Assembly (NCBI GenBank): GCA_964549075.1
Contig: CAZJUB010000066.1
Location: 1-14,874 of the forward strand
From: an uncultured archaeon
GTDB taxonomy: Archaea > Asgardarchaeota > Heimdallarchaeia > Heimdallarchaeales > Heimdallarchaeaceae
DNA: 14,874 nt
Reading direction: 5' to 3'
Notes under the pieces: model-generated
Databases searched by the model: none
Seen by the model: only the letters and a program-made list of their open reading frames with translations
Told to the model about the DNA's origin: nothing
In this document: positions 2,192 to 13,766 of the stretch, one piece after another
Layout of the letters: each line of letters begins with the position of its first letter
How positions within the stretch are numbered: the stretch's first letter is position 1
Translations under genes and position numbers: made by a program

Positions 2192-2806
2192 ATGATGTTT
2201 GAAATGAATTTCTCGAAACTTGTATCTAAAAGGAGAGCTTATCGAAAGCTCAAACCATTTGATGTAGAACCATCTATCATAAAAGAACTAGTAGATATAG
2301 CTAAATTAGCTCCTTCTTGTGATAATAAACAACCTTGGAGATTTGTATTTATCTATGATAAAGAGCAATTAAAAGAGATGAATAAGGCTTTTTATGAACA
2401 AAACAGATGGGTTAAAAACTCTTCATTATTAGTTGGAGTATTTTCTAAACCTGATTATGATTGTCGAGTTGAGAATCGTGATTATTATCTGTTTGATACT
2501 GGTATTGCAGTGTCATACATGATGTTACGTGCTACAGAGATGGGATTGGTTGCTCATCCGACTTCTTATTTCGATGAAACTAAAGCTAAAAAAATATTGA
2601 AGATACCTGAAGATATGAAACTGATAACAATTTTAGTTATGGGGAAACATGCTGAATCAGGAGAAATAAAATTGACTCCTGATCAAGAACAGGATGAATT
2701 AGGAAGACCTAAGCGTTTTAGTATCCAATATCTTAGTTACTTAAACAATTATTTAGAAGAATATGAGGAAAATAAAGAAAGATATAATCAGTTTTTATCA
2801 AAATAA
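2192..2806 (+). CDS. Nitroreductase family FMN-dependent oxidoreductase
   Basis: KRRAYRKL, LAPSCDNKQPWRF, DTGIAVSYMMLRATEMGL and a late RPKR FMN-binding segment. The true start may be ATG 2204 (MNFSKLV). Confidence 0.92.
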   Translation: MMFEMNFSKLVSKRRAYRKLKPFDVEPSIIKELVDIAKLAPSCDNKQPWRFVFIYDKEQLKEMNKAFYEQNRWVKNSSLLVGVFSKPDYDCRVENRDYYLFDTGIAVSYMMLRATEMGLVAHPTSYFDETKAKKILKIPEDMKLITILVMGKHAESGEIKLTPDQEQDELGRPKRFSIQYLSYLNNYLEEYEENKERYNQFLSK

Positions 2807-2843: not shown

Positions 2844-3101
2844 TTAGAAAAGTATTGGAACTTCTATTATTGAATTATTATCCTCTTGGTCAAGAACGAC
2901 TGGTTCAATGCCAGTTAATGTAAGAAATTTTGTCATGTCTTTAATTATTTCATCTCTCTCTTTTTCTGAAGCAAGACAATTCAGTGCTTTAAAACGTATT
3001 ATTTCTAAATCCATGGGTATAAGGTTGTTTTGTATATAGAATTCAATTGGTTTCTCGTAAAAGTAGGGTATTATTATTTTGACAAATTGTTTATTTGTCA
3101 T
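2844..3101 (-). CDS. Small hypothetical protein (85 aa)
   Basis: ATG-start ORF filling the gap, with its own BRE/TATA-like box upstream and a T-tract downstream. No recognised motif. Confidence 0.7.
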   Translation of the reverse strand: MTNKQFVKIIIPYFYEKPIEFYIQNNLIPMDLEIIRFKALNCLASEKERDEIIKDMTKFLTLTGIEPVVLDQEDNNSIIEVPILF

Positions 3102-3176: not shown

Positions 3177-4118
3177 TTACTCCATAAAATAGTTTGTGGT
3201 TGTATAACTCTCCTTAATTCCAACTTTACCGTCTTTGTATTGTGTTGCAAATTGACCACAGTTTGTACCTATCTCGTTCTCTTCCCAAGCACCAATACTA
3301 ATAGCTGCATCAAAACCTAGTTTTCGAAATTCTTCTACTAGTGGGAAGTATTCAGTATTTTCTTTAGTAATTCCGCTTTGAAGTTTGTTGTTTACTGCTT
3401 TACTTGTAGGATTAACCGGTGTAAGTTTAATCCAATATTTAGTTGGATCAAAGAGTTTTTGAATAATCTGAGGATCGATTTTTGAATCTTCTGCAACTGC
3501 AAAATTAAGAGTGATTCTTCTATCACCATCTTTAAACCATCTTTCTCCAAATTCAGCTATCTTTTTCAAAGACCACATGTTTTTGGTCATCCATTTTTGT
3601 CTCTCTTCTTCATCTGTAGAATGGATGGAGAATTGTAGCTGAAAATTGCCATTAGGATAAAGTTCATCTTTTATTAATATTAGTTCATCAAGGAATTTTT
3701 CTCCACCTTTAGGAGCTATTGTACTTATACAAGGCATTAATCCCATAGCTTCATATTTCAATGGAAGAATTTTCAGAACTTCTAGAACTTTCTCATTGAG
3801 TGTAGGTTCTCCCATACGAGCAAATTGAATTTTAAATTTATTGACTGGTATCTTTCCGTCTGGAAAACGGTTCTTAATCATAAAATCAATTTCTTTCAAC
3901 ATACCTTCAGCTGAAATGTTTCCGTGATAGTATTCTCCAGCATCGCACATTAAACAGCCAACAGGACAACCATACATGGTTGAAATGATTAAAACCCATT
4001 TTTTTTCTCGGGGAATAGGTGGTTGTAAACTTTCGACAAACTCAATAATTTTGCCATCATGTTTAGCAATATAAAGGATAGCTAAATCTTCTCTACCATA
4101 TTTACCAATCAATTCCAT
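3177..4118 (-). CDS. Radical SAM protein, RlmN/Cfr-like but atypical (no N-terminal domain, no resolving Cys)
   Basis: CxxxCxxC (C51, C55, C58; CPVGCLMC). ARMGEP matches RlmN MGMGEP, SIHS matches SLH, KLTPVN matches NLIPWN, and IGTNCGQF matches IDAACGQL. Confidence 0.88.
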   Translation of the reverse strand: MELIGKYGREDLAILYIAKHDGKIIEFVESLQPPIPREKKWVLIISTMYGCPVGCLMCDAGEYYHGNISAEGMLKEIDFMIKNRFPDGKIPVNKFKIQFARMGEPTLNEKVLEVLKILPLKYEAMGLMPCISTIAPKGGEKFLDELILIKDELYPNGNFQLQFSIHSTDEEERQKWMTKNMWSLKKIAEFGERWFKDGDRRITLNFAVAEDSKIDPQIIQKLFDPTKYWIKLTPVNPTSKAVNNKLQSGITKENTEYFPLVEEFRKLGFDAAISIGAWEENEIGTNCGQFATQYKDGKVGIKESYTTTNYFME

Positions 4119-4181
4119 TAGTAATTCACTTTACAAAATTTAGATACATTATTAAGAATTATTATGAGTGATAGTCTCTGT

Positions 4182-5111
4182 TTACCATATCTCTCTTGTG
4201 ATTCCGTAATTACCTTCTTCTTCTGTAGTTTTTTTTACTATTTTCATTGCAGCGTTCATTCCGTCCCCAATAGCAATTGATGTTTGTCTAAAGTTATCCT
4301 TCTTAACATCCCCAATATAGTACAGATTAGGAATTTCTTCATCTTTTTCATAAGCTTCTAGAAGCTCAGGACTTAACATAGAAATATTTGGCTCTCTTCC
4401 TATAGCAACAAGAATTAAGTCAGCAATTAATGGAATTATGTTCTCTTCTCTTTTAGAGGATAGAATGACTCTCTTGCTTTCAAATTTAATTTTTTCAGGA
4501 ATGAGATTAGTTAGAATGCTGATATTAGTTTGCCTTGCTACTCTCTCTTGTAATATTGGGATGCTTCTTGCTTTTCTTGATCTTTGAACTATTGATATAT
4601 GATTCGCTGAATCTTTTAGATTCATTGCATAGTCATAAGCAACATCGCCACTTCCAACAATTATGATAGTTTTATCTTTAACATTATTTCTAGCTTCATA
4701 ATTCTCATAATAAAGAAGTTTCTTTTGATAAGCTTCATCTTCATATGGAATATCCATCTTTATGGGGATTGAACCTGTAGCAATTATTAAATGATTACAA
4801 ACTATTTTATCTTTAGAAGTTCTAATAATAAATCTCTCTCTGAATAATTTAATCTCTTCGACAATTCCTTTAATCATAGGAATTTTAAAATTAGTAAATT
4901 GCTGTTTTAAGATTTTTACAAACTCTTCTCCGCTGATGCCTTTTGGAAAACCTACTAGATTTTCTATTAGGTTCGCATTCTTGATTTTTCCCCCAATTTC
5001 ATCAGAGATCAGCTTGATATCTATCCCATTTCGCATTAATTGGATTGCTGCTGTCAAACCTGCAGGTCCTCCTCCTACTATAGCTACATCAGCGTAAATT
5101 TCATCAGCCAT
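4182..5111 (-). CDS. Thioredoxin-reductase-like FAD/NAD(P)H oxidoreductase lacking CXXC
   Basis: GGGPAG FAD motif, IENLVGFPKGISG, ATG motif, GSGDVA second dinucleotide motif, VAIGREPN and GDV..RQ...A.GDG. Only one Cys in the protein. The start overlaps the upstream gene's stop by 8 nt. Confidence 0.88.
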   Translation of the reverse strand: MADEIYADVAIVGGGPAGLTAAIQLMRNGIDIKLISDEIGGKIKNANLIENLVGFPKGISGEEFVKILKQQFTNFKIPMIKGIVEEIKLFRERFIIRTSKDKIVCNHLIIATGSIPIKMDIPYEDEAYQKKLLYYENYEARNNVKDKTIIIVGSGDVAYDYAMNLKDSANHISIVQRSRKARSIPILQERVARQTNISILTNLIPEKIKFESKRVILSSKREENIIPLIADLILVAIGREPNISMLSPELLEAYEKDEEIPNLYYIGDVKKDNFRQTSIAIGDGMNAAMKIVKKTTEEEGNYGITREIW

Positions 5112-5751
5112 TCAAAATCGCCTCAGTTGCAACACATCTACCAAATCCGTGTGATATTGATTTAAGTGTACCTAAGTGTAGCTCTTCAGTATAGGTAGCA
5201 TTTGCATCCACAATGAATAATACTTCAAAATCCTTCATAAAGGCATCTCTTGCTGTTGTTTCACAACAAATGTGAGACATAATTCCAGTTACTATAAGCT
5301 GTTTTACCCCTTTCTCTCTCAGTGTTTTTTCTAAATCGGTTTTCTCAAAAGCACTATATCTAGTTTTAATGAATATCTCTCCAAGTTTTGTGTCAAATTC
5401 TGGAATGATTTCAGATCCCTCACTACCTTCTGTTACTGAATCCCTCCACCATTTGGTCATCATTTCTTCAGGTTTTTGAGTATCGATGTGTTGAGTAAAA
5501 ATAATTGGTCTATTATTAGTATCAAAGAAATCTAGTAATTTCTGTATGTTAGGTATAATCTTTACAGCTGTTGGTATGAATGCATGATTTTCTTTATCTA
5601 AGAAAAATTTTTGCATGTCAAGTACTAATAGAGCTGCTTTGGAAAGATCAAATTCAAAAGCAATGTATTTTTTCATTCTCTTACATTCTTGTATCCACGA
5701 TTCTATCTTTTGTTTCTGATTTTCAGCTGTTAGATATAGTTCTTTTTGCAT
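5104..5751 (-). CDS. Cysteine hydrolase (isochorismatase/nicotinamidase superfamily)
   Basis: Catalytic triad motifs LLVLDMQ (Asp), KTRYSAF (Lys) and GIMSHICCETTARDA (Cys), plus DANAT and LHLGTL. Confidence 0.92.
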   Translation of the reverse strand: MQKELYLTAENQKQKIESWIQECKRMKKYIAFEFDLSKAALLVLDMQKFFLDKENHAFIPTAVKIIPNIQKLLDFFDTNNRPIIFTQHIDTQKPEEMMTKWWRDSVTEGSEGSEIIPEFDTKLGEIFIKTRYSAFEKTDLEKTLREKGVKQLIVTGIMSHICCETTARDAFMKDFEVLFIVDANATYTEELHLGTLKSISHGFGRCVATEAILNG

Positions 5752-5791
5752 CAGAACAGTCTTGTAATTACACCTTAATATTTCTATTTCT

Positions 5792-6625
5792 CTATTTGTA
5801 GGCTAGAATACTTTCATTGTCTTCTGTTCTTTCTGTATAAAAACCACAATCTGTCAATCTTCTCTCAATCCCACTTATGAAATCTTTCCCTCTGTATTTT
5901 GCACCAGGTTTTCCTATATAGTGTAGCATTCTTCCTCCATCTCTTAAAACTCTATATAATTCTCGGTAGAATTTCGCAGAATAAAGCTCTCCTGCTAAAG
6001 AAAATCTAGGTGGATCATGGAGTATAACACTAAAAGAGCTATCTTCAAAGGTTGTTATCACTTCACTCGCATCATCATTAAGTAGAGTTATCCTGTTTTC
6101 TTCTATCCCTTTGAATAAATCTTGGGAATATGGATTATATTCAGCTATTTCTATTACATTTTGATCTTTTTCTATCGTAATAACTCTGGCTTTTTTCCTA
6201 TATGATTCGATAGCAGTATATCCTAATCCTGTACAAATGTCTAGAACATCTTCACCTTCAGCTACAGAAACTAAGTTTATTTTCTTACGAGCATCTTCTA
6301 AAGGTGTAAGGTATTTTGTTCTGTGCATCCTTATTCCATCAATTTCAAGAGTTGGTGCAGTGTTCTCTATTGGCTCTAATTTGTAGTAACTTTTATCAAA
6401 GAAAGCAATTATCCTTGGAGGATCCTCTACAATAAAAACTGCAGGATTCTTAGCTATTTTCTTAATAACCTCAGGTTCATAACTAATCTCACCAATGATT
6501 ATTTTCCCTCCTCTAAACCTTACTTCTTCTTGAGTAAATCGTAAGTCAAAAAAAGCTATAATAGAATCTCTTCCTTCTTCATAAGCTTCTAATATTTTTC
6601 TAGCTTCGAAGGAATCGATAAGCAT
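5792..6625 (-). CDS. Class I SAM-dependent methyltransferase, COG2521-type (predicted archaeal methyltransferase)
   Basis: PTLEIDGIRMHRT, motif I VLDICTGLGYTAI, TIEKD, motif IV HDPPRF, GELYS and VLRDGG. Confidence 0.88.
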   Translation of the reverse strand: MLIDSFEARKILEAYEEGRDSIIAFFDLRFTQEEVRFRGGKIIIGEISYEPEVIKKIAKNPAVFIVEDPPRIIAFFDKSYYKLEPIENTAPTLEIDGIRMHRTKYLTPLEDARKKINLVSVAEGEDVLDICTGLGYTAIESYRKKARVITIEKDQNVIEIAEYNPYSQDLFKGIEENRITLLNDDASEVITTFEDSSFSVILHDPPRFSLAGELYSAKFYRELYRVLRDGGRMLHYIGKPGAKYRGKDFISGIERRLTDCGFYTERTEDNESILAYK

Positions 6626-8286: not shown

Positions 8287-10149
8287 TTATCCAACAATTT
8301 TTTTTCTTTTTAAAACTAATTGAACAATAGATGTTACAATAATCGGTAATATTAGAATAACTGAAAAGCCAATTGCGAATATTGGTGGTTCTGTATAAAT
8401 TGTAGGTTCAGCTAGAGGGTATGGGTCTGTAACATTTGTCCAGCTCAAGATAGAATAAGGTTCTGAACCAGACCAATCCGAATAATAGTTTCCTTCTTTT
8501 GTTGATTCTTCAAACCAAGTATTATTGATTCCAAAGTCCATAGCTTGAGGAGATCCGTCCAATTGGTTATCGATAAAATTATTGTGATGAATGATATTGT
8601 AATCAGAAAAATCTAATCTTAATCCGGGATAACCGGTATAATCATAGTGATTGTTGTTTATTATGTTATTGTATTTTATTTTACACTCATCTGAATATAT
8701 TAGATAAATCCCCCCAAATTGATTTTCTCTACAAGTGTTGTTTACTAAGGAAGTACGATTTGATTCTATAATCCAAATTCCACAAAAGCTGTTGTTCTCT
8801 ATTAAATTAGATTTTATCAAAATATCCTCACTATCTTGAAGGTCTATGCCTTTTATCCAGTTTATACAAATTGTGTTAATAACATCTATATTTTTACTCG
8901 ATACTATCCTAATTGCATATCTGTTTATGTAATTGTATGATATAAGCTTCAGATTGGAGATAGTTACTTTTTCACAATTAAACAAAGCAATCCCACAAAA
9001 CTCCGCTGTATTAAGCTGGTTTCTAATTTTTATCTTATAACCATTAATTATGATGATTTGACCATATATTGGTTCATCAAAATTAAACCGTTTTAGATTG
9101 AGAAAGAATCCTAATTTGTAATTATTTACAAAATTTCCACATACTACACTATCAATATAATTTTCATAATAATCGTCAGCGATTTCTAAACCTGAACCAA
9201 ATAGATGATTATATGAAATTTTTATTTCGGGGGATTGATGGACAGATAAAGAATCCCTTTCAGATGTAGAAGTATTATTTAGTACTGAAACTGAGATTGA
9301 GTTGCCTATTGCAATTCCAGAGCAGTCATTTTCAGAATACGCATAATTCTGGTCAATTATAGCAAAATTCGAATAAGAACACATTATCCCTGCAAGTTCA
9401 TTATTTATACAAGTGTTGTTTCTTATAATAGAGTTGTGGGAGTAATAAATTTCAATACCGTTTGAATAGCTGTTCTCTATTAAAATATTATCTGCAATTT
9501 GACAGTTCAAGGAATGTTCAACTATAATTCCTCCCTGAAGATTATGTTTGCAGATATTATTAGTGATTGTAGAATAATTACATCCTTCTTTCAGTAGTAT
9601 TCCATTAAAATGATTTCTAGAACAAGTGTTGCTGGTTATAGATAGCTCCTTAGAGTATTTACCCCAAATGCCAATATGGTTGGTGTTTGAACAAATATTA
9701 TTCTCTACAACACATGTTCCCGCAGAAACATTAAACAGATAAATACCAAAGCCACTAGAGCATAGAAGACAATTTCTTATTACAAAATATCTGGTTGTGT
9801 TAACAACGTTAATCGCTCTAGCATCATTAGTGGTTATGTTATAATTTTCAATTATAAATGGATCATAATGGGTTCCAATCCCACTTGAACTAAAATTCCC
9901 AAAATCATTATCTGTCAGAATTTGTATAGAGGAATGAGAGATGTAATTGATGTTGTACTCTTTTTGTTTAATACTTAATACATAATTGCTGCTATAATTT
10001 CCTCTATGTTCTTGTTTAAGTGATGGAACATTGCTTGCTACTTCTTGATAATGATAAATAGGAATAATTAGAAATAACATTAATAGCAGCAACCTTATCT
10101 TCAATTTTATCATAATTGTTAGATCTTTAAAACTCATATAGTTTTTCAT
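8287..10149 (-). CDS. Secreted, membrane-anchored right-handed parallel beta-helix (NosD/CASH-like) protein
   Basis: N-terminal hydrophobic signal. G.GT..DPFIIENYNI lead-in. Many GI.L..S....I.NN.C..N repeats. GNYYSDW..DPYPL cap. C-terminal TM helix followed by KRKK. The true start may be a downstream Met. Confidence 0.88.
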   Translation of the reverse strand: MKNYMSFKDLTIMIKLKIRLLLLMLFLIIPIYHYQEVASNVPSLKQEHRGNYSSNYVLSIKQKEYNINYISHSSIQILTDNDFGNFSSSGIGTHYDPFIIENYNITTNDARAINVVNTTRYFVIRNCLLCSSGFGIYLFNVSAGTCVVENNICSNTNHIGIWGKYSKELSITSNTCSRNHFNGILLKEGCNYSTITNNICKHNLQGGIIVEHSLNCQIADNILIENSYSNGIEIYYSHNSIIRNNTCINNELAGIMCSYSNFAIIDQNYAYSENDCSGIAIGNSISVSVLNNTSTSERDSLSVHQSPEIKISYNHLFGSGLEIADDYYENYIDSVVCGNFVNNYKLGFFLNLKRFNFDEPIYGQIIIINGYKIKIRNQLNTAEFCGIALFNCEKVTISNLKLISYNYINRYAIRIVSSKNIDVINTICINWIKGIDLQDSEDILIKSNLIENNSFCGIWIIESNRTSLVNNTCRENQFGGIYLIYSDECKIKYNNIINNNHYDYTGYPGLRLDFSDYNIIHHNNFIDNQLDGSPQAMDFGINNTWFEESTKEGNYYSDWSGSEPYSILSWTNVTDPYPLAEPTIYTEPPIFAIGFSVILILPIIVTSIVQLVLKRKKIVG

Positions 10150-10297: not shown

Positions 10298-10363
10298 TTG
10301 AGCAAACAAACATTTATTATAGTAAAAAATACAACTATCCAATGGTCAGAAGAAAGTGGTAGA

Positions 10364-10813
10364 ATGATACACAAATTAACTAAAAACGAATACAATCATT
10401 TTCTTAAAAACTCTAATCAACAAATTAAAGAGTTATTCGAGTTTTTTGATGAACATAAAAATATTGATGTTTTAACCTCTTTAATTTTCAAGTCAGAAAG
10501 TTTTGAAGAACTTAAGAAAGAATTTCCAAATTATGAGGAAAGATCTTTAGCCGAATTTATCATTCATGCAAGGAAAGTTGGATTACTCGAATTATTGGAT
10601 AATGATAAATATAGGATGACAGATTCTGGAAAGAATTATCTCCATGGAATTGTTCACTTGATAATCGATTCCCATATCAATCATGGAATACCAGACGATA
10701 AAATGAAAAAGATTATCTATGATTATATCGGAAAAGATGAAGTGAAAAAACGTAAAGAACAAAAAGAAGTAGAACATGCGAAGGAAGTAGAATTAGGTTT
10801 ATTTCCAGTCTAA
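10364..10813 (+). CDS. Winged-helix domain protein, paralog A (149 aa)
   Basis: wHTH-like pattern IDVLTSL...SFEEL...L...GLL.....YRMTDSGK. Start moved from TTG 10298 to ATG 10364 because that Met aligns with Met1 of the paralog at 13314. Confidence 0.8.
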   Translation: MIHKLTKNEYNHFLKNSNQQIKELFEFFDEHKNIDVLTSLIFKSESFEELKKEFPNYEERSLAEFIIHARKVGLLELLDNDKYRMTDSGKNYLHGIVHLIIDSHINHGIPDDKMKKIIYDYIGKDEVKKRKEQKEVEHAKEVELGLFPV

Positions 10814-13313: not shown

Positions 13314-13766
13314 ATGTTCGATAAACTTGATGATGAAGATTTTAGATATCTTTTAGTTAATTCAAGAGAGGCTATCTCATATATTCTTGATGTTTTAGAT
13401 GATAAAGATGCATTAGATATTCTAGCTTACCTGCATTATGAATCCGCTTCATTTAAGGCTTTAAACACCTTCTTTGATAAGATAGATAAGAACACTTTGT
13501 CTTCTTATATTACTAGACTCTGGGATTTTGGAATAGTTAAATATACCAAAAAAGAGGAATTTGAATTAACTAAATTAGGTAAGAAATTTTTACAAATAAC
13601 AGTTCAATTTGTAATTGAATCTTTTCTAAGTGACGAGATACAAGATGAGAAAATGAAGAAGATACTGGTACAAAGAATAGGTGCGACAGAGTTAGCACAA
13701 TTTAAAAAAGAAAGAGAAGAGAATAGAGCAAAAGGAATACAAATAGGACTTTTTAGAGGTACATAG
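13314..13766 (+). CDS. Winged-helix domain protein, paralog B (150 aa)
   Basis: LDILAYL...SFKAL...TLSSYITRL...GIV.....FELTKLGK resembles ArsR/HxlR-type wHTH domains. An SD-like GGTGA precedes the ATG. Confidence 0.82.
   Translation: MFDKLDDEDFRYLLVNSREAISYILDVLDDKDALDILAYLHYESASFKALNTFFDKIDKNTLSSYITRLWDFGIVKYTKKEEFELTKLGKKFLQITVQFVIESFLSDEIQDEKMKKILVQRIGATELAQFKKEREENRAKGIQIGLFRGT

Follow-up and report, generated by a model that had tools for sequence, protein, structure and literature searches.

The stretch of DNA considered here (the window) is an entire 14.9-kb contig (G000:C66) of a Heimdallarchaeaceae archaeon, the proteins of which have their closest named relatives in metagenome-assembled genomes of Heimdallarchaeota. 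Between positions 3177 and 6625 it carries four co-directional open reading frames (ORFs) on the minus strand, encoding a class-I S-adenosylmethionine (SAM) methyltransferase, an isochorismatase-family cysteine hydrolase (IsoC), a flavoprotein resembling thioredoxin reductase (TrxR; TrxB-like) and a radical SAM enzyme with the fold of RlmN and Cfr (rSAM). Comparison with other genomes shows that the hydrolase, the flavoprotein and rSAM are one conserved genetic unit, at times even one polypeptide, the flavoprotein−rSAM pair being its core and IsoC a frequent but non-obligatory third member. As to function, we see about an even chance that the three proteins work together as a self-contained radical SAM system that draws its electrons from NAD(P)H and has a small heteroaromatic metabolite as the substrate.

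Conservation of the three-gene unit

Synteny was evaluated in 20 loci around rSAM homologues from several Asgard families, 18 of which have flanks of 1.9 kb or more in each direction, and in metagenomic loci recovered by a scan with the family alignment, from which the 80 highest-scoring of 590 confirmed stretches were taken. This metagenomic set and the viral set discussed below are the best-scoring 80 of larger lists, and not random samples. Both partners, namely IsoC and the flavoprotein, are found on the same strand in 16 of the 18 Asgard loci, with gene order IsoC-TrxB-rSAM or rSAM-IsoC-TrxB, and neither is found in the other two. These exceptions (G130 and G199) belong to a single genus, that of the window, and keep the methyltransferase, IsoC and TrxB-like genes together elsewhere in the genome, with the rSAM gene 16 kb away from them or on a different contig. 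In both genomes (loci L033, G130:C3, and L034, G199:C117, with L258 and L259) the rSAM gene has moved beside a gene for an S9 peptidase.

Of the 47 metagenomic loci flanked by 1 kb or more in each direction, 46 have a flavoprotein gene beside that of rSAM, and among the 38 with flanks of 1.9 kb or more the flavoprotein is present in 37 and IsoC also in 29. The GC content of the metagenomic contigs that bear the module spans 0.29–0.68, and the module also occurs in Bacteria, as is shown by one copy in which a bacterial tmRNA gene (L108:4968-5369) lies approximately 90 nt from the IsoC gene.

Gene fusions lead to the same grouping. Among cluster representatives, the TrxB-like protein is fused to rSAM in P0128, P0149 and P0165, and rSAM to the isochorismatase-family hydrolase in P0155, P0158, P0162, P0164 and P0166, the fused domains being orthologous in architecture to the proteins of the window. 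The distribution among 301 Asgard genomes, a sample in which related genomes are not independent, is also consistent with a single unit: strong matches to both rSAM and IsoC were obtained in 41 genomes and to neither in 256, leaving two genomes with IsoC alone, one with rSAM alone (gene cut by the contig start) and one with only a paralogue of 31% identity. The co-occurrence recurs in five families (f1, f3, f6, f14 and f27), and the distribution of rSAM, which was found in 43 of the 301 genomes, is patchy. The initial annotation of the window had proposed that these genes make up a self-contained module, a view borne out by synteny that persists as gene order changes, by both types of fusion and by the near-perfect co-occurrence in genomes; the linkage and fusion sought in other genomes were found for the hydrolase and the reductase, with linkage of the methyltransferase seen within the genus only.

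The radical SAM enzyme

The rSAM protein is recognized by hidden Markov models of RlmN and Cfr with E values of approximately 1e-10, but the scores are far below the family cut-offs, namely 39.4 bits against 290 for TIGR00048 (RlmN) and 36–39 bits against 468–550 for the Cfr models of NCBIfam. Its AlphaFold2 model, obtained with 45 homologues and with a predicted local distance difference test (pLDDT) value of 92.7, finds its best folds among RlmN structures (template modelling (TM) score, 0.66–0.71; 18–21% identity), with Cfr at rank 11, and no solved relatives other than these two enzymes were found. The homologues of rSAM are numerous (5629 proteins at E ≤ 0.001), and some sources label them as 23S rRNA (adenine2503-C2)-methyltransferase.

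An alignment of 45 diverse homologues has just four invariant cysteines, namely C51, C55 and C58, which form the CX3CX2C motif for the radical SAM [4Fe-4S] cluster, and C287, from which it follows that rSAM has no auxiliary cluster. In family-profile alignments C287, in the sequence NCGQ (family motif, GSNCGQ), falls over the cysteine of the CGQ motif of 6fz6, of Cfr (9p0p) and of RlmN (4pl1). In RlmN this residue, C355 of the C-terminal AACGQL motif, is the methyl carrier. As to the resolving cysteine, which is C118 in E. coli RlmN, seven residues ahead of the first cluster cysteine, rSAM has I44 in the corresponding column, and the displayed rows of the 45-member family alignment contain no conserved cysteine there. 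Thus, the statement in the initial annotation that the radical SAM enzyme and the reductase both lack their canonical catalytic cysteines is correct for the CXXC of the reductase and for the C118-type residue of rSAM, but not for the C355-type residue, since C287 is retained in 45 of 45 aligned members.

A further difference concerns the N-terminal region. The RNA-binding N-terminal domain of RlmN and Cfr has no counterpart in rSAM, because the alignments begin at chain residue 67 of the E. coli RlmN and of Cfr (residue 83 in tagged RlmN chains); the match to TIGR00048 begins at profile position 87 of 355. Overall, the likeness to RlmN and Cfr consists of the fold, the cluster motif, a GEP motif and the invariant C-terminal cysteine within CGQ, while the differences are the low identity and family scores, the absence of both the N-terminal accessory domain and the resolving cysteine, and the tie, at times a fusion, to a flavoprotein and a hydrolase in a family patchily distributed in archaea and bacteria. 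As judged from these features, rSAM shares the scaffold of RlmN and Cfr but is not a member of either family, and is best placed on a third branch within the class A fold of radical SAM enzymes.

The flavoprotein and the hydrolase

The flavoprotein shares with thioredoxin reductases the two-domain FAD/NAD(P)H architecture, with GxGxxG/A, GD and RQ motifs invariant in the family; both dinucleotide-binding motifs (G13/G15/A17, G153/D156/D160 and G267/D268) are unchanged in 52 sequences. It differs from them at the site of the redox-active disulfide, where YENY takes the place of CXXC and where the 52 orthologues have a consensus of their own, FYE, with E136 conserved in at least 90% of them. The score with the thioredoxin-disulfide reductase model TIGR01292 (163.9 bits) is under the cut-off of 343, so that, by these sequence criteria, the protein is not to be regarded as a thioredoxin reductase. 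Among solved structures its relatives are TrxRs (E = 1e-26) and, more weakly, ferredoxin-NADP+ reductases (FNRs) of the TrxR type (E = 1e-14). The lack of a redox-active disulfide is common to the flavoprotein and to the latter (YumC-like) enzymes, in which a C-terminal aromatic residue stacks on the flavin. However, the C-terminal tail of the flavoprotein, including W309, is not conserved across orthologues, and a flavin-stacking aromatic residue cannot be claimed for it.

IsoC is a clear member of the isochorismatase family (PF00857; 145.9 bits against a gathering threshold of 27), under the cut-off of every NCBIfam equivalog. Its best solved relative is EntB (2fq1; E = 1.5e-29, full length), an isochorismatase of the EntB/PhzD type, and the likeness to EntB extends over the whole chain, the N-terminal lid segment included, with the Asp and Lys of the family retained. 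At least 90% of 51 orthologues conserve D45 (in DMQ), K129 and C161-C162 (in LCCETTAR). D45, K129 and C161 occupy the positions of the Asp-Lys-Cys triad of amidase-type members, C161 being at that of the nucleophile. Because the conserved C161 replaces a glycine of EntB, and D45 and K129 are present as well, IsoC combines an EntB-like frame with an amidase-type nucleophile.

A sister subfamily and a lead to queuine lyase

A sister subfamily of rSAM, with 33–37% identity (E = 2.6e-28 for the match to P0225), offers a hint on the type of substrate. P0196 joins the radical SAM domain to a transporter component of the QueT type, while in P0221 and P0225 QueT, the radical SAM domain and a C-terminal MTA/SAH-type nucleosidase make up a single polypeptide, the nucleosidase of P0225 scoring above its NCBIfam cut-off. 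A stand-alone form (P0272) is common in gut Lachnospiraceae (Firmicutes), and the sister form is also very common in large phage contigs (542 confirmed stretches), where it corresponds to phrog_24834, a family of unknown function. As far as can be seen in the displayed alignment rows, the sister subfamily, too, keeps the C-terminal cysteine and has no resolving cysteine. No TrxB-like or IsoC gene lies beside the sister form in any of the 119 viral loci fetched, and the partnership with the flavoprotein and IsoC is therefore specific to the subfamily of the window. In these viral loci (L139-L257; for example L173:3138-4118) the next gene is DUF4406 or nucleoside 2-deoxyribosyltransferase-like in 33 of 119, and a SAM synthetase gene is nearby in eight of 119.

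The set of functions found in the sister fusions is also that of the queK-qrtT-queL operon of Clostridioides difficile, which is described as encoding a nucleosidase, a QueT/QrtT component and a radical SAM enzyme (PMC11477304, PMC11570991). QueL is described as a radical SAM queuine lyase that converts queuine to preQ1 (PMC11477304, PMC11570991, PMC11130926, PMC12632869). The likeness is one of gene content: the matches listed from the searches with P0225 and P0272 include neither QueL by name nor a C. difficile protein, and NCBIfam scans of the window and of the sister-group proteins returned no QueL model. By this analogy QueL quite probably belongs to the sister subfamily, which is to be taken as a lead rather than as a result, and the sister fusions point to a chemistry on free bases, perhaps similar to that of queuine lyase. 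Two differences are to be kept in mind. The subfamily of the window has no QueT or nucleosidase partner but the flavoprotein and IsoC instead, and the host of the window makes preQ0 itself.

Proposed reaction and alternatives

In the reaction scheme that we propose, the FAD-containing flavoprotein would take two electrons from NAD(P)H and hand them on singly. The first would reduce the [4Fe-4S] cluster, leading to cleavage of SAM to the 5′-deoxyadenosyl radical, and the second would quench or resolve an intermediate involving C287. The rSAM subunit would carry out a radical C-methylation, or the cleavage of a C–N or C–C bond, on a free heteroaromatic base or a nucleoside-like metabolite, a 7-deazapurine-type compound being the leading guess by analogy with the sister subfamily. 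C287 may take part in an RlmN-type S-methyl cysteine chemistry or act as hydrogen donor in a lyase reaction; with either role one turnover needs two electrons, which one NAD(P)H would supply via FAD. IsoC would probably act before or after the core reaction, on the substrate or the product, by stripping off a group of the amide, amidine or enol-ether type. A small molecule is favoured over RNA because of the absence of the RNA-binding N-terminal domain, the acidic character of the family (median isoelectric point, pI, of 5.96 in 90 orthologues), its patchiness, the tie to a family of small-molecule hydrolases and the fusions of the sister subfamily to QueT-type and nucleosidase domains.

Several observations weigh against this scheme. 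IsoC is missing at nine of the 38 informative metagenomic loci, so that the core reaction can do without it. For the class of substrate, the guess comes from analogy with a subfamily that is only 33–37% identical, and the module has neither a transporter, a regulator nor a riboswitch to go with it. The hosts already reduce many other radical SAM enzymes, and the sister subfamily works without this flavoprotein. Furthermore, G000 encodes its own arcTGT, QueC and QueD, so that the organism does not depend on 7-deazaguanine salvage and, if the substrate were a 7-deazapurine, the module would not be an obligatory route. For the same reason the idea that the module is needed for want of 7-deazaguanine synthesis in the host was rejected. 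A prediction of the complex between rSAM and the flavoprotein, each entered as an alignment, gave a score of 0.00, below the mark, and was counted neither way.

On the other hand, a generic electron donor need not be kept adjacent (46 of 47 loci) or fused to the enzyme it serves, which, along with the conserved FYE motif and E136, hints at a more specific role for the flavoprotein. An alternative that makes such a role explicit is a reductive methylation, in which a Cys287-CH2-substrate adduct, formed as in RlmN, is resolved by hydride from the reduced FAD; the flavoprotein would then replace the resolving cysteine instead of being the reductant of the cluster, as modelled on ThyX and TrmFO, which are flavin-dependent methylases. 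The C355-type cysteine is indeed invariant while the C118-type cysteine is gone, the flavoprotein is obligately paired or fused with rSAM, the FYE motif, with its at least 90% conserved E136, is exactly at the disulfide site of TrxR next to the flavin, and the sister subfamily, which has no flavoprotein partner, occurs alone. The proposal is, however, an inference only, and that same sister subfamily keeps the cysteine with neither a resolving cysteine nor a flavoprotein, so that the cysteine by itself does not need such a partner. We regard this alternative as unlikely, although it deserves real weight.

Less probable still is the possibility that rSAM is an adenine C-methyltransferase of tRNA or rRNA, like RlmN and Cfr, provided with a private reductase, in which case the hydrolase would be unrelated or regulatory. 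RlmN and Cfr are its sole solved relatives found, some homologues carry the rRNA methyltransferase label, and the sequence is well conserved, with 66% identity to a protein of Promethearchaeum syntrophicum. However, scores of approximately 39 bits fall far short of the cut-offs of 290–550 of the two families, the N-terminal domain and the C118-type cysteine are both lacking, and the family pI is acidic. The presence in 43 of 301 genomes, the signs of transfer between hosts of GC content from 0.29 to 0.68, and the genetic tie and fusion to a family of small-molecule hydrolases also speak against an RNA-modifying enzyme.

Very improbable is an antiviral or conflict role, in which, as with the viperin-like radical SAM enzymes, a modified nucleotide would be produced or a metabolite depleted. 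The compactness, patchy distribution and varying genomic context of the module, and the abundance of rSAM relatives in phage contigs, are set against a PADLOC scan without matches for rSAM or IsoC and with an insignificant one (E = 0.009) for the flavoprotein, against neighbours that are ordinary metabolic or housekeeping genes instead of defence genes, and against the fact that the phage relatives are of the other subfamily and lack both partners.

Within the preferred reading, i.e. a NAD(P)H-driven radical SAM system acting on a small molecule, a more far-reaching formulation can be put forward only tentatively, as it has, in our estimate, somewhat less than an even chance of being correct. 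The module would be a self-sufficient radical SAM system of a new class, in which an enzyme of the RlmN/Cfr fold has lost RNA binding and the resolving cysteine, and forms an obligate complex or fusion with a CXXC-less flavoprotein. The latter would couple NAD(P)H directly to the radical SAM chemistry: it would take the place of ferredoxin or flavodoxin as the reductant of the cluster, or else reductively resolve the Cys287-CH2-substrate adduct. The substrate would be a free nucleobase-like compound, for example a 7-deazapurine, trimmed by the hydrolase.

Relevance

A full-text search, the coverage of which stops short of subscription journals and closed supplements, found no published account in which a radical SAM enzyme is joined by a TrxR-like flavoprotein and a hydrolase of the isochorismatase family, in line with the earlier remark that such a trio had not been described. 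The electron supply of radical SAM enzymes in vivo is usually ascribed to generic ferredoxin or flavodoxin systems. A flavoprotein kept beside, or fused to, one radical SAM subfamily from Asgard archaea to bacteria would, if the proposed role is true, represent a natural and portable coupling of NAD(P)H to radical SAM chemistry, of use for both in vitro and heterologous work. Should the self-sufficient formulation hold, no radical SAM enzyme before this one would have had a flavoprotein partner of its own, and the class A fold would gain a third function.

With the C-terminal cysteine kept and the resolving cysteine dropped, the mechanism of the RlmN/Cfr fold becomes testable in a new setting. 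Assignment of the function would also correct the annotation of thousands of members, which are now either unannotated or mislabelled as rRNA methyltransferases. Finally, the family is probably akin to enzymes of the queuine-lyase type and to the common phage family phrog_24834, which would link it to nucleobase salvage.

The methyltransferase and other neighbours

The methyltransferase is a genus-level neighbour and not part of the module. Its gene adjoins the module in two of the 18 Asgard loci and in none of the 38 metagenomic ones, and it is found in 64 of the 301 Asgard genomes, including the module-free families f11, f12, f21 and f24; in a search with the protein of the window, most of the genomes that carry the module but belong to other genera gave no match. 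As a member of the pathway it was rejected, since the adjacency is confined to that genus and its distribution in the phylum is decoupled from that of the module. The caution, voiced at the outset, that it may be only a neighbour was thus justified.

Other neighbours that recur, each in few loci, are genes for fumarase, DegV, an epimerase, a methyltransferase, NUDIX, adenosine deaminase, a nitroreductase and CbiM/Q. The flanking genes are otherwise unrelated between loci, and no consistent functional clue emerges from the recurrent ones, among which, in the 20 Asgard and 80 metagenomic loci, there is neither a QueT/QrtT component nor a queuosine nucleosidase. Rfam gave no riboswitch in the window (nothing at E ≤ 0.1), nor in 17 metagenomic loci, where it returned only tmRNA and tRNA. 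In one Asgard family (L049:8123-10224 and L051) genes for a CbiM/CbiQ/ABC-ATPase (ECF-type) transporter are directly beside the module. A gene of the nitroreductase family adjoins it in the window (2192-2806, plus strand) and in the metagenomic loci L053:3238-4056, L058 and L075; the nitroreductase of the window has a partial BluB-like match of 56 bits, below the cut-off.

Layout of the locus

The features of the locus are collected in table 1. The methyltransferase and hydrolase genes are separated by 40 nt (5752-5791), while those of the hydrolase and of the flavoprotein overlap, the sequence reading ...AATGGCTGATGA... in context, i.e. ATGGCTGA. The ORF coordinates reproduce the arrangement given in the initial annotation, namely four co-directional genes with a 40-nt gap, an 8-nt overlap and a 63-nt gap, and the Pfam and NCBIfam matches agree with its family labels for the hydrolase, the TrxB-like flavoprotein and the RlmN-like radical SAM enzyme.

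Table 1. Features of the module and of the adjoining methyltransferase gene (window coordinates; lengths in amino acid residues, aa, or nucleotides, nt).
Feature	Position	Strand	Basis or remark
rSAM, RlmN/Cfr fold, 313 aa	3177..4118	-	Weak RlmN/Cfr hidden Markov model matches, AlphaFold2 model, family alignment
C287 codon (GTNCGQ), fourth invariant cysteine of rSAM	3258..3260	-	Over the C-terminal cysteine (AACGQL) of RlmN and Cfr
CX3CX2C motif C51/C55/C58, radical SAM [4Fe-4S] site	3945..3968	-	Invariant in 45/45 aligned members
I44 codon, column of RlmN C118 (resolving Cys)	3987..3989	-	Alignment to 4pl1 (C118A RlmN)
Spacer between flavoprotein and rSAM genes, 63 nt	4119..4181	-	
Flavoprotein, TrxR fold without CXXC, 309 aa	4182..5111	-	Pyr_redox_2, E = 1.1e-31; 52-sequence family alignment
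Y135-E136-N137-Y138 in place of TrxR CXXC	4698..4709	-	Opposite C-A-A-C of TrxR 7jyp
Overlap of hydrolase and flavoprotein genes, 8 nt	5104..5111	-	ATGGCTGA; hydrolase stop codon inside flavoprotein start region
IsoC, isochorismatase-family cysteine hydrolase, 215 aa	5104..5751	-	PF00857, E = 1.7e-42
C161-C162 codons of IsoC	5266..5271	-	C161 where EntB has Gly (hiCC versus hiGC); LCVE in the fused form P0155
Class-I SAM methyltransferase, 277 aa	5792..6625	-	Generic class-I matches only (Pfam, NCBIfam); labelled COG2521 in the initial annotation

Downstream of the rSAM gene, at 75 nt and on the same strand, there is an ORF of 85 aa (2844-3101, minus strand), which matches no family and did not turn up among the conserved neighbours at other loci. 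Elsewhere in the window, two paralogous small proteins (10298-10813 and 13314-13766, both plus strand) are encoded on either side of genes for a PD40-repeat protein and an MFS transporter; a winged-helix model weakly matches one of the two, and both match the same single ORF in the relative L036. The product of 8287-10149 (minus strand), probably a surface protein, is a right-handed beta-helix (NosD-like) protein of 620 aa that has a hydrophobic segment at either terminus.

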